Shown here piece by piece: positions 5,520-59,919 of a DNA stretch of 64,000 nucleotides (the first letter of the stretch is position 1; every line of letters begins with the position of its first letter). A program made the translations under genes and the position numbers. The notes beneath the pieces were generated by a model. The model did not search any database. It was given only the letters and a program-made list of their open reading frames with translations, and had not been told where the DNA came from. This DNA comes from Raja brachyura (lineage: Eukaryota). The DNA lies in contig OY740788.1 of the NCBI GenBank assembly GCA_963514005.1, positions 42,656,001 to 42,720,000 of the forward strand, given 5' to 3'.

Positions 5520-5712
5520 GTAGGAAGGAACTGCAGATGCTGGTTTAAACCGAAGATAGATACAAAATGCTCAAGTAACTCAGTGGGTCAGGCAGTATCT
5601 CCGGAGAAAATTAATAGGTGACGTTTCAGGTCAAGTCCCTTCTTCAGACTCGGGTCTCGACCAAAACATCACCAGAGGTGCTGCCTGACCTGCTCAGTTA
5701 CTCCAGCATTTT
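5520..5712. mobile_element. Penelope-derived fold-back element with hammerhead-like motif
   Basis: GGAACTGCAGATGCTGG...GTAACTCAG..GGGTCAGGCAG arm with its inverted copy CTGCCTGACC.GCTCAGTTACTCCAGCATTTT. The minus strand at 5650-5617 reads AGT CTGAAGA A GGGACTTGACCT GAAAC GTC ACC. Confidence 0.8.
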
Positions 5713-6357
5713 CCTTTTAATATTTTTGTGATTATCTTCAGGGAGGTAGTGTTGGATTTGCCCCAGACCCTACCCAATGTTCTCAACCTTTTCATGTCTG
5801 AGCGGGCATCAAAACCATCATGATGATATTCTCCCCTTAATTACTGTACAAGTTGTAAACTCATTGCGATCCCCAATCCCACAGAAACCTATGTTTACAC
5901 TGTCCTCTACCCTGTTTTTTGCCACATGACAGTCACAACCTATTTAAAACGGGCACGCTCACGAGACTGGATTTAAAATTATGAAGTTCTTTCTCAAATA
6001 TAGCGTAGATCAGATTTAACCGAATGGATAAAATCAGTTCAGACATTATTATCTCTTGGGACCAGAAGAAAAAAATTATTGTAATGTTCAATTTAATTAA
6101 ACTAAATTTAAAAGATTTTATTAGTTGTACATATGTATATGTTTTTAATTTCTGGGAAGAGAAGCAATGGCCAATCCTCAAATAATAATTCAATAGCAGA
6201 TTAAAACATACATTGGACACAATAACTGGCATTTCTGTGGCATTTTGCATGTAAATAAAACAATTAAAAAAACTGTACTGTGCCCATGATAGGAAAGTGG
6301 AATACACCTTCTGCCCAACTCACTTAAACAACTGAAGAATATTTTGGGTGTGGACCA

Positions 6358-6494
6358 GTCCGCAAAAGAGTCCCGAACCAAAACGTCACCTATCCATTTT
6401 CCCCAGGGATGCTGCCTGACCCGCTGAGTTACTCAGCATTTTGGGTCTAACTTCACCTTCGATTTTTCCAGCATCTACAGTTATTTCTTAAACA
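6358..6494 (+). mobile_element. Penelope-derived terminal fragment
   Basis: AAAACGTCACCTATCC...GATGCTGCCTGACCCGCTGAGTTACTC...TTCCAGCATCTACAGTT, same family as 5520-5712. Confidence 0.75.
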
Positions 6495-6807
6495 TCACTT
6501 AAATAACTGGTCAGTCACCAAGTACCCAGCTGAGTTGAAGAAATCAGATAACACAGCAGTTAAGCTAATGACTGTAGTTATCAGAGCTGAAGAAGTTGAG
6601 ACAGAAAGGGCAGTGAGGGAAAAGTCATGTAATCAGGTCAATTCAGCAGAATTTAAGTTAGTTTAGAACTAGAAATTTGGCACATTCAAGAAGTCTGCTC
6701 TACCATTCTCCAAACCCCTGCATGTAGTGTGGTGATGCTGGCAAGAGGGCTTGCCACATCCACATGATCTAAATGTGGCCTGAATGTGGATGTACGGGGG
6801 CACTGTG

Positions 6808-6880
6808 TAAACACGCACACACTCATACATACACACACACAGACAGACCATCCGACACACACACACACACACACACACAC
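6808..6880 (+). repeat. (CA)n microsatellite, imperfect
   Basis: Runs of CA dinucleotide. Confidence 0.9.
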
Positions 6881-56125: not shown

Positions 56126-57494
56126 TTGAAGGGATGGGTCCTGGATTCCATGCAAATCTCTGAGCATGGCGAGAGTTGTATGTTTCCCTTCCACCTTCAG
56201 AACACATACAGCGTATCTGGCAGGCCTGCTACTGTGTCAAGGAGGTCATTTGAGTATCCACCAATTTTATAGCTATCCATACTGTGTTGAGGTATACGCT
56301 GGTATACATTTATAATAACAGGATTATTAATTAAACCCGTCGTTGTGTGAGGAAAATAATATTTTTAACAAAGGGAGAGGAGGTTGAACAAAAACATTAA
56401 ACTCCCTATAAATAAAGGAGTGGGGTCTGAAATGTTTATTTTCTTCTTTCGGAGGAACTTTTCATCAAGCTAACTCTGAGGAGAGGAATCTCTATTGCCT
56501 TTGTGGGCTTTGAGGCAAAGTGAATTTAGGAAACCTAATTTCTGTTCTGATCTTTTGCAAGTCCACAGCAGAAAAGTGGCCATAATCTGCAGCTTATCAC
56601 TATTAAGTTGACCAAAATTGGTAATATGGAAGGTCAAGAAGATCGCTGCAAAACATGGAATAATTCATTATGCGGAAGAGAATGTTGTCTGCAGTTTGGT
56701 AGCAAAACAGCAGGGCTGAAAAATTCAATCAAGTAAAGGACGATTTTTTGTGCTATGCAATTGCAACACAGCAACAATTGCTAAACGGTTTAGTCGTGAG
56801 CAAATGGTGTGTTTTGATCACACACAAAGATGCGCAGTCAAAACGCACGTGTTCATCCTGGCAAACCAATCAAATGAGCAAATAACAGTGTGTGAGCACA
56901 GCTCTGGACTTCCAGGACCCTGATTCTGACTGCACTATCTCATTGTGAGTGGCAACAGTCTGGGCAAATTGACTGTAGGACTTGCAGCTTTGGGAACATA
57001 TGTGCCATTACCTTGAGAGGAGAGAGCCAGGTTGCATTCCACTGGTGCTCTTTGGCATTCTCCAAGGCTTTCAGGTGGATGGTTCAGTGCCCCAAGCATC
57101 TCTATTTGAAGGCTCATCAATCTCAATCTGTAGGTTGCCCCAAAGTGGGACTCATCTGATTCTTAAATATCAGAACTGGAATGTGACCTTGTCCCTGTGG
57201 GAACCACCATACAAGCTACCTTCTCTTCTGCATTGTCTGCCATCCACTCATGCATGGTGATATATTCATTTCGGGTGATTTACCACATGCAGCCTCTGCC
57301 TCAACCTGTCCTCTATATTCAATCAGTCAGGATCCGAGATGGTGGATGCAAATTGTGGATGTACTGAATGTGGGATTCACTTCCTCCTCCAAAAACCACA
57401 GCTCTGCTGCCAGGGTTGGACAGCTCCTACATCTTGAGTATTCAAAGTGAGAAGAAGGGTAAAAATAGATGGTGGAACAGGCAGGCAGGAGTGT

Positions 57495-57808
57495 TAGATG
57501 CAGGATAAATGGTCCCCATGTTGGGGGAATCCAGAACCAGGGATTACAGTTTAAGAATAAAGGGTAGGCCATTTAGGACTGAGGTGAGGAAAAATAAAAT
57601 GTCACCCAGAGTTGTGCATCTGTGGAATTCTCTGCCACAGAAAGCAATGGAGGTCAACTCACTGGATGTTTTCAAGAGAGAGTTACAGGTAGATTTAGCT
57701 CATAGGGCTAACGGAATCAAGGGATATGGGGAAAAACCAGGAACGGGTTACTGATTTTGGATGATCAGCCATGGCCGAATGACCTACTCCTGCGCCTATT
57801 TTCTATGT
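57495..57808 (+). mobile_element. CR1/HER1 3' end
   Basis: PMLGESRTRDYSLRIKGRPFRTEVRK...LWNSLPQKAME...GIKGYGEKPGTGY* followed by 3'UTR. Confidence 0.92.
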
Positions 57809-58313
57809 ATACTTGAATCAAGTAGATCTCATAAACCCAAAATGAATTGTGGGATTAGGGGAGTGTAGGGTATGAGGGGGATTAAATAAGAGCATACTGT
57901 GATCCTCAATATTATTCAAAGTGAAAACTGAGCCCATGGCCACTACACTCTTTGCCAAATAAAAGGGCCTATGACCATGATAAGTTTCCCAACCCCATAC
58001 ATGGTGTTGCAGTCTGTGGTTGCAAGCAACCTTGCCCTGCAAGAGAGAAGGGAAAGTATTAGTGACTGTGCTACAATGTGCTCCTGTGATATACCTAGCA
58101 AGAATGACTAATGGTAGGTGTGGTTAAGATGAGAGATGTATGTAAATGTACCAAAATAGTGGCCAAGTGTCTGAGTGTTCATTTAGTGAGAAATTCACAT
58201 TTAATGGAGGAAATTTGTTGCTAATTTCATTGTTCTTAACCAAGCACAAGGTTATTTTAAAAAACTAGTGGCACTTTGAATACTATTGAGGATCACAGTA
58301 TGCTCTTACTTAA

Positions 58314-58409
58314 GATAGACACAAAATGCTGGAGTAACTCTGGCAGCATCCCTGGATAGAAGGAGTAGATGACGTTTCGGATCGAGACCCGTCTTCAGAC
58401 CAAGATTGT
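58314..58409 (-). mobile_element. Short Penelope-derived insertion with 10-bp TSD and best-preserved hammerhead core
   Basis: TCTTACTTAA duplicated at 58304-58313 and 58410-58419. Confidence 0.8.
58368..58401 (-). ncRNA. Minimal type-I hammerhead-ribozyme-like motif
   Basis: GGU CUGAAGA C GGGUC UC GAUCC GAAAC GUC AUC. Catalytic boxes are intact, stem II has 5 bp (one G-U), the palindromic ACGU replaces stem III, and stem I has 3 bp. Activity untested. Confidence 0.55.
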
Positions 58410-59919
58410 TCTTACTTAATCCTTCACACATCCTATTTTCCCCCTCATCCCCAGGGCATCTTTGCAAGCTGCGATCTCTCTGACATGTTCTCCCACTGTA
58501 GCTTTATTTCAGTCCTCAGTGGCTTCTAGGACCATCTCAGCTGCAGGACTTCCAATCTCTTCCACCAGGTTCTCGAGGATTGGCATCTGTGAGTAGGGGT
58601 CTGGTGTATGTACAGCTATCAAGTGAAAATTTCATTGTTCCCTTGAGGGACATATGACAATAAAACACTCTTGACTATTTTTCAAGCTACACATTAACCA
58701 AGCAGTCGTCGGATACAGTAGCTGATTTCAGTTTAAGAGGTGCAGGCAACACGTCAGCCTGTTTGGGTTAGTTTCAGCTGAATGCACAGGGCTCCTAGGC
58801 ATGCTAATAGGGGAATCTTCACAATCAGTACCTTCTAAGTGCATAAGGTGCATGGAAGTGATTCACACAATCAAGGCACTAGAACAAACTGGCACATATT
58901 ACTATTTTAGCACATTTGAATCTTGAGGGGACCTTTTTTTTAAAAAATCTGCTCATACTGATTTTGAGTGCTTGGAACAGACAATTAATGTCCTTGGTTT
59001 GCAGCTGTACCCCTTAATAGCCATAAGCATGACATCAGAATAAAGGTTAAGACAAGTTTTGAATGTATATAACATATAGGTGCAGCATTATCTGATCCCT
59101 CGGAAACGGTATCCTTAACTATTCTTTAATTAGAAATAAAGTCAAGGTTAAATTGTCTTACAAGGTACTTAATAGTTAACTAACTCATGTTTGCCAGTTC
59201 TGTTTGGAAATAAGATTATTGAAGGATATGGAGCAAGGAAGGAATCAGGGATTAAAACAATAGATCGTTTGTGGTTCGTAAATTGAAGGAAAGGGCTTAG
59301 TTGGTCAAATAGTCATCTTTTATACGTAAGATTTTATACGTAATTAATTTTCCTTGCCAACATTTGTTTGTTTTTGCTGCTTGCATTCCATTTCCAATGG
59401 ATCATCAATGCACTTTCTTTGTTTGATAAAATACTACATCTATGACTATTCAGGGTCTTGGATATGCCAAGCATTATCTTTGTTTTCTTCTGTGGGAAGT
59501 TAGCTTTGTTTTGATTTTATATTTCTTGATGAGGTTGTTTTGTGTGTAAACATTATCTTTATGACTTTTTCATTTGAGAATATAGCTCATCTCATGAGGG
59601 TGACTCAAACGCACCAATCCTCCTGGAATTAATTTACCCACAATATTTAGCAGAATACATAATTCATGATTTTGCTTCTAATTTGCAGGGAACCTCTCTA
59701 GGAAGCATTAACAGGTTGGGGAATGCAGCAAAGGTTTATCAAAGGGACCAAGGATTGGCGAGTCAAGAATCTGACTCAGAAAGAACCCTCTAAAAAAAAA
59801 TCAATGTTGATGCCAGAGCAAAATGAAATGTGAAAAATATGTTTTATTCCTCACTGTTTTCCCATTATAAATTAAATGAGTAAGAATTCCTGTGGGTTAA
59901 ATTGATTTTAGCAGTAGTT

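Follow-up and report, generated by a model that had tools for sequence, protein, structure and literature searches.

Minimal hammerhead ribozyme motifs occur in the pseudo-long terminal repeats (pLTRs) of Penelope-like elements (PLEs), for the most part singly ('probably related to truncated PLEs') or in opposite-strand pairs spaced 100-700 bp from each other (Cervera and de la Pena 2014, PMC4209133). Insertions of endonuclease-bearing (EN+) PLEs of the Neptune and Poseidon types carry one-sided 30-40 bp tails, inverted pLTRs and target-site duplications (TSDs) of 8-10 bp (Craig 2021, PMC8557442; Arkhipova 2013, PMC3846280); in Poseidon PAc of Anolis the tail has been traced to two internal start sites of the reverse transcriptase (RT), with cutting and extension on both target strands (Frangieh 2024, PMC11167929). 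Very short PLE insertions are a known truncation product, with a median of 128 bp among de novo insertions (PMC9977147). Retrozymes are by definition tandem units with complete ribozymes and circular RNAs (Cervera 2020, PMC7229834; Li 2026, bioRxiv 10.64898/2026.07.22.740005). PLE ends that are short, inverted and tailed, lie between TSDs and carry minimal hammerheads have been described already. Here we analyse a dense repeat family, in our reading probably such ends, in 64,000 nucleotides of Raja brachyura DNA (assembly GCA_963514005.1, contig OY740788.1, positions 42,656,001 to 42,720,000; hereafter the window), for which an earlier note had proposed that the ribozyme-containing terminus of a PLE moves as its own retrozyme-like element.

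An nhmmer profile built from the repeat arms found the family at all 17 positions listed in the earlier note and added an eighteenth, nested insertion at 8505-8614, giving about 30 arms in 18 insertions; the reversed window, used as a control, returned just two matches (best E 0.037). Two weak candidates, 12931 (E 0.028) and 54690 (E 0.59), score at the level of this control and were excluded from all counts; 12931-12995 (+) and 54690-54727 (+) may be very old additional arms. A 28-nt motif pattern matched five times at up to three mismatches, against 0.00 expected, and a strict regular expression for the motif recovered only three family copies, owing to decay. The family occupies about 3.4 kb (5.4%) of the window; its copies are old, with a mean pairwise identity of 71%, and represent several old subfamilies, the two arms of one insertion often carrying common variants. 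The motif proved to lie at the 5' edge of the unit and not at its centre, as first described. The copy at 34925 has no motif at all, and 25095 is no short unit but a longer copy split by a SINE-like (short interspersed element-like) insert in helix II. Nine insertions are inverted, with arms head-to-head and fold-back junctions in or beside the motif, as had been noted, and one is a partial same-strand tandem (51502..51770).

The longest copy, 50232..50620 on the minus strand, ties the family to its parent. It runs from broken, frameshifted coding sequence for a GIY-YIG C-terminus (about 50620-50417) through a pyrimidine-rich 3' untranslated region (UTR) of about 100 nt to the motif (50314-50285, with a 2-nt insertion in GAAA) and a short end. 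The 58-aa translation of 50417-50590 (-) is 68% identical to a Leucoraja erinacea (little skate) gene model, the one match among 27 candidates; this model is chimeric, with an RT of the LINE (long interspersed element) type followed by a GIY-YIG segment, and the region matching our peptide follows the GIY-YIG match. The peptide itself has no Pfam match. A library-wide search with it returned 59 relatives at E<=1e-3, and three of the six relatives retrieved have, by hand reading, a CX4CxxC linker before the endonuclease; a CX2-5CxxC linker between RT and endonuclease marks Neptune and Nematis elements (PMC8557442). Judged by homology, the parent is an EN+ PLE with a C-terminal GIY-YIG endonuclease, as the earlier note had recognized from this copy, and the linker seen in three of the relatives, though not in the window, suggests that it is probably of Neptune type, as its closest relatives seem to be.

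Three arms run on into the common pyrimidine-rich 3' UTR, and the arms form a length continuum, with 5' ends from +52 to -305 (coordinates count from the predicted cleavage site behind GUC, which lies between -1 and +1). Endonuclease-coding sequence is confined to the 50232 locus, and tblastn found no PLE-type RT region in the window. Three public gene models, P0001, P0002 and P0003, have taken up the endonuclease tail of the element, joined to a LINE RT, a seven-transmembrane (7TM) receptor and DUF4518; these fusions are probably annotation artefacts. Among GTDB contigs there were no matches to the DNA pattern and no confirmed relatives in 65 candidate stretches.

The 3' ends of the arms fall into two classes, near +56 to +69 and near +92 to +100, and all nine inverted insertions pair a long outer end with a short one (p 0.002 if ends were independent and 50:50). 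These ends were taken from profile alignments, except in the complex 21567 copy, which was read by hand; the arm at 24420 ends early, at +46. A 30-40 bp tail is therefore present at one end only in nine of nine. All four TSDs reported earlier were confirmed (19819/20023, 21558/21906, 44920/45123 and 58301-58304/58407-58410) and a fifth lies at 6320/6495, so that 5 of 18 insertions have a TSD above a random-pair null (99th percentile score 8; one of 150 random pairs scored 14), of 9-17 nt in AT-rich target. The Neptune and Poseidon insertions of PMC8557442 and PMC3846280 are alike in 5' truncation, partial tandems, an inverted truncated copy, the one-sided 30-40 bp tail, TSDs of about 9-10 bp, junction palindromes and microhomology; the window insertions differ in that nearly all are wholly without the element's open reading frame (ORF) and in their density of 18 in 64 kb. 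Poseidon PAc (PMC11167929) likewise has its hammerhead some 60-100 nt ahead of two alternative ends, inserts into AT-rich targets and uses a template that is not cleaved, but belongs to a different clade, and its ORF start overlaps the ribozyme, while no window copy has an open frame through the tail.

An 8-nt stem at +19..+26 (5520-5650 and other long arms) can pair with either of two CAGCAT repeats (+48..+55 or +78..+85), which lie 10-18 nt upstream of the one or the other 3' end. One might guess from this pairing that a single stem in two registers positions the two priming sites, a guess to which covariation lends no support.

In sequence, the arm consensus is a minimal type I hammerhead with the features listed in PMC4209133: a core of CUGANGA...GAAA...UH, an additional base behind A9, the G10.1-C11.1 pair and a palindromic stub, ACGU. 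The claim of a minimal hammerhead with a palindromic stub for helix III is thereby supported. The family resembles the pLTR hammerheads of that paper in these letters, including the extra base between A9 and G10.1, and in its mostly dispersed single motifs and opposite-strand pairs; it differs in that helix II is no longer than 4 bp and that helix I has just 2 bp at its base, followed in the consensus by mismatches; helix I is also 2 bp in D. virilis (PMC4209133). The available parts of that paper name no cartilaginous fish and hold no tabulation of breakpoints.

An Rfam scan of the window found no hammerhead match at E<=1; its only three matches are weak and all to miRNA models, two of them on one fold-back hairpin. 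The hammerhead fold was not predicted for the monomer consensus, in which helix II has a pairing probability of about 0.2 and helix I one of <=0.01, and a partial dimer hammerhead model (-12.7 against a dimer minimum of -21.1) is little informative, since helix I was omitted from it. No significant covariation was seen in helix I, helix II or the two alternative downstream stems: most measures were equalled by 11-53% of shuffles, and one by 12 of 500. The core is intact and uninterrupted in 2 of 13 core-spanning arms (a third, 50232, agrees in the core letters but has its 2-nt insertion in GAAA), and only one of the two, 58314, also has a fully paired helix II. Eight of 20 arms have lost G12, seven of them by G to A, and the neighbouring C11.1 has gone from C to T in 7 of 20, a symmetric loss by CpG decay. 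Identity outside CpG is 91% in the core and 84% in the flanks (Fisher p 0.02), but the advantage, which is inflated by the edges of local alignments, has p 0.055 against +1..+62 and p 0.21 against +17..+56 after base-matched column permutation. A core no better conserved than its flanks was among the outcomes that the earlier note held against its own proposal, and to this extent it was found. The motif was probably conserved in the master elements; the genomic copies decay neutrally, with no sign of selection.

Among 30 arms, 12 have their 5' end at -29 to -34, 7 at -11 to -24 and 3 no more than about 4 nt from the cleavage site, the remainder lying at +8 to +21 (five) or far upstream (three, at -75, about -150 and -305). 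The cluster at -29 to -34 has p 5e-5 under a constant hazard and, once the three long arms are left out, 4e-4 under a uniform null. A conservative table takes in 25 arms delimited by a junction or TSD; ambiguous arms stand outside the cluster in it, two later-found arms are added and seven rows are dropped (12291, 34922, 42664, 50232, 51681, 54940 and the 19961 mini-segment). There the cluster keeps 8 arms (p 0.004, 0.007 or 0.062, depending on the null). Ends at the cleavage site, 2 of 25 to 3 of 30, are at about the level of a uniform spread. The GUC site is therefore not the breakpoint, contrary to the earlier suggestion that it defines inversion or truncation; most arms retain sequence upstream of it, which implies that the template RNA was uncleaved. 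This agrees with Anolis, in which ribozyme mutants insert normally and cleavage is unnecessary for insertion (PMC11167929). Simple random 5' truncation, which the earlier note had named as its refutation, fits in part: the junctions are unique, but the 5' ends form a cluster where the ribozyme has its own 5' edge.

We consider it probable that the repeats are dead-on-arrival 3' termini (pLTR ends) of several old subfamilies of an EN+ PLE, probably of the Neptune type, in the genome of a cartilaginous fish, produced by two-site priming, early stops and joining on an uncleaved template. By analogy with Anolis Poseidon, the element's protein would nick both strands of AT-rich DNA in a staggered manner, and cDNA would be primed at two fixed internal RNA sites, about +63 and about +98 past the predicted cleavage site. 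Each nick would use a different priming site, so that a long arm is paired with a short one; the cDNAs would stop early and be joined via microhomology or by snap-back at self-complementary stems of the ribozyme region, the hammerhead of the uncleaved RNA being copied as a passenger. The most speculative step, to which we give somewhat less than even credence, is that the stop at -29 to -34 marks the 5' end of a transcript starting at an initiator, so that many short arms would be run-off copies of the leader, like strong-stop DNA. A fuller version seems doubtful: that the transcript starts at an initiator exactly at the hammerhead's 5' edge, that the two fixed priming sites lie 95 nt and 130 nt further downstream, each serving one of the nicked strands, and that strong-stop-like leader cDNA is mass-produced, integrates as single or fold-back units and may be re-transcribed.

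Several points weigh against this account. The data on two-site priming come from another clade, Poseidon; the window holds no full-length parent, RT domain or linker, and the clade assignment rests on relatives. Thirteen of the 18 insertions have no TSD significant against the random-pair null, and the 5' cluster falls to p 0.06 under the strictest null. The sequence at the cluster fits a splice acceptor equally, and it was spotted only after the cluster had been seen. The sample is one 64-kb window of old copies (71% identity), its breakpoints are partly hand-read and several are ambiguous, and the window leaves room for a non-coding master hidden elsewhere in the genome.

The position of the 5' cluster carries YYAGTCT, which fits an initiator and a splice acceptor alike. 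YYANWYY, the initiator consensus, is present in all four arms with genuine upstream sequence (background 1.3%). A downstream promoter element at the expected spacing was unconvincing by eye and was dropped. The promoter of D. virilis Penelope is internal and TATA-less (PMC2377424). If the cluster near -30 were instead a splice acceptor, or an RT stall at the pyrimidine tract or helix boundary, the remainder of our preferred account would stand. That alternative to an RNA 5' end is somewhat unlikely: a polypyrimidine tract and YAG directly precede the motif in three of three long arms (pyrimidine fraction 0.70-0.84; background 95th percentile 0.68), and the pLTR intron of D. virilis reaches up to the 5' end of helix I (PMC4209133), but the clustered arms have no visible upstream exon in common, the 50232 copy contains just one weak donor-like site, and PLEs keep introns on transposition. 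The data here do not separate the initiator and splice-acceptor readings. A short capped non-coding RNA, running from an initiator at -31 through both priming sites and mobilised in trans from short copies or a non-coding master, in a SINE-like but cleavage-free manner, would also account for the cluster and its initiator-like motif, and both the D. virilis promoter (PMC2377424) and the action of pLTRs in cis for trans-mobilisation (PMC3846280) suit it. We nevertheless regard it as very improbable, as copies starting at -31 lose the initiator's two pyrimidines and the sequence 3' of the priming sites, and the variety of subfamilies and the long arms are explicable without such a master. For rotifer Penelopes, self-priming on an antisense template has been proposed, which would produce head-to-head arms and palindromic junctions such as those in PMC3846280; it is improbable as the source of the fold-backs here, for alone it yields no long/short pairing in nine of nine, and priming on sense RNA at both strands has now been demonstrated in vitro (PMC11167929).

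The reading of the earlier note, a non-autonomous retrozyme-like unit whose self-cleavage sets the truncation or inversion point, is in our view the least probable. Its attractions are the stereotyped arms of 95-130 nt, junctions in or beside the motif, the raw difference in core identity, arms at 8511 and 21733 that begin at +2 and +4, and a same-strand motif pair 55 nt apart; PLE-derived retrozymes are moreover reported in vertebrates, including one chondrichthyan (bioRxiv 2026.07.22.740005), and non-autonomous PLEs in Chlamydomonas (PMC8557442, PMC9977147). Yet none of the 14 rows from Tandem Repeats Finder (TRF) for the window is a hammerhead array, so that two or more consecutive tandem units with complete hammerheads are absent from the window; the sole same-strand pair (51575/51681) has a lesion in each core; and the window contains a minimal motif only, without the full helices of a canonical type I ribozyme. 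The inverted junctions differ in nine of nine cases, several with 2-3 nt microhomology or a hairpin, so that the unique breakpoints which the earlier note had named as adverse were observed for these copies, and three arms run into parent sequence. Besides the lack of excess 5' ends at the cleavage site and the weakening of the core advantage upon base matching, the fold-back copies bury the motif in long hairpins (z -6.0 and -6.8, the latter for 5520..5716) in which the second motif is antisense, so that the dimer thought to be needed by these ribozymes cannot form, and Anolis RNA needs sequence past the RT start sites that such copies lack (PMC11167929). Non-LTR retrozymes (PMC7229834, bioRxiv 2026.07.22.740005) are also short, non-coding, pLTR-related and of hammerhead type I, but are tandem units with complete ribozymes and circular RNA, whereas the window copies are dispersed, inverted, minimal and mostly dead. 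The one fixed structure and junction of a SINE- or MITE-like element (MITE, miniature inverted-repeat transposable element) is likewise missing in this one window, in which nine of nine junctions differ and arms are unequal; a MITE reading is rejected on account of the unequal arms, variable junctions and long TSDs.

A literature search outside Repbase, Dfam and subscription papers found no paper on this family or on a truncation cluster at the 5' edge of a ribozyme; the family is probably already catalogued in Repbase or Dfam, and the chondrichthyan families of bioRxiv 2026.07.22.740005 could include it. The formation of inverted PLE ends and the role of the hammerhead are open questions in the field (PMC8557442, PMC11167929), and with its density, sharp 5' stop and strict long/short pairing this family would allow two-site priming to be tested cheaply across a whole genome, in a second clade. 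The family argues that cleavage does not shape the inserted copies. If the leader-cDNA reading were true, genomic junctions in their thousands would locate the RNA start and both priming sites, trace the joining of the strands and thereby test how inverted ends form. For annotation, the family is a caution: hairpins here that look like miRNAs or MITEs are PLE debris.

Of the inverted insertions, that at 5520..5716 has a left minus-strand arm from -31 to +98, with an intact core and weakened helix II, and a right plus-strand arm from -20 to +60 that has lost G12. At 8321..8648 the left arm spans -21 to +98 and the right, from -10 or -1, is interrupted by the nested plus-strand insertion 8505..8614, which belongs to a different subfamily (+2 to +100; a possible 9-nt TSD by eye, 8496-8504/8615-8623, was not significant in the scan). 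The arms of 19833..20022 cover -24 to +100 and +21 to +67, with short switches inside the motif at the junction; those of the old insertion 22884..23105, about -31 to +92 and -22 or -11 to +57, meet at a hairpin-like junction; and 24421..24547 joins -31 to +46 with a right arm of tail only, +52 to +96. In the old insertion 33739..34122 a left arm from -21 to +62 faces one from about -31 that is split by a SINE-like fragment (tail 34056-34122), and at 44932..45122, within its 12-nt TSD, -13 to about +98 faces -30 or -22 to +68. The complex insertion 21567..21905, with a 9-nt TSD, has six segments in both orientations. In the longer copy 25094..25810, a minus arm from +69 to about -150 (25094-25181 and 25488-25620) carries the insert of about 300 bp, with an inverted arm at 25724-25810 (+8 to +96).

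Single long arms lie at 6335..6494 (+; -32 to +100), preceded by a degenerate inverted mini-arm of about 20 nt and flanked by a 15-nt TSD with one mismatch (6320-6334/6495-6509), and at 12288..12413 (-; old, about -31 to +95). The motif-less arm 34922..34997 (-) covers +13 to +97. Short single arms are found at 42666..42778 (+; -30 to +63; G12 lost, 20-nt insert), 54940..55038 (-; -31 to +68; G12 lost, upstream boundary uncertain) and 58314..58409 (-; -30 to +67), the sole copy that combines an intact core (58371-58398), a paired helix II and the ACGU stub, with a 13-nt TSD of one mismatch (58301/58407). The minus-strand tandem 51502..51770 has three arms head-to-tail, -75 to +22, -33 to +62 and +14 to about +87.

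No host gene was identified in the window: 21 of 53 long ORFs were scanned and gave three matches, all to helix-turn-helix (HTH) transposase families. Two decayed Tc1-like transposon copies, 38038-39680 (-) and 43502-44841 (+), show transposase HTH matches and mutual similarity, and tblastn found LINE RT fragments at 23110-24109 and 62586-63750 (-), which we take to be probably of CR1/L2 type. The abundant SINE-like family of about 300 bp (10998, 14873, 25181, 27733, 27982, 35694, 41634, 47295, 55848 and 57495) is younger than two of the PLE copies, since one member lies inside helix II of the 25095 arm and a fragment lies in the 33828 arm. Another repeat of about 300 bp has two copies (32669-32966 and 34566-34862). 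There is a possible 69-nt exon at 7772-7840 (-), flanked by AG and GT, and a GC-rich insert at 47439-48009, which contains tandem repeats of 24 bp and 90 bp, seems to interrupt a SINE-like copy.

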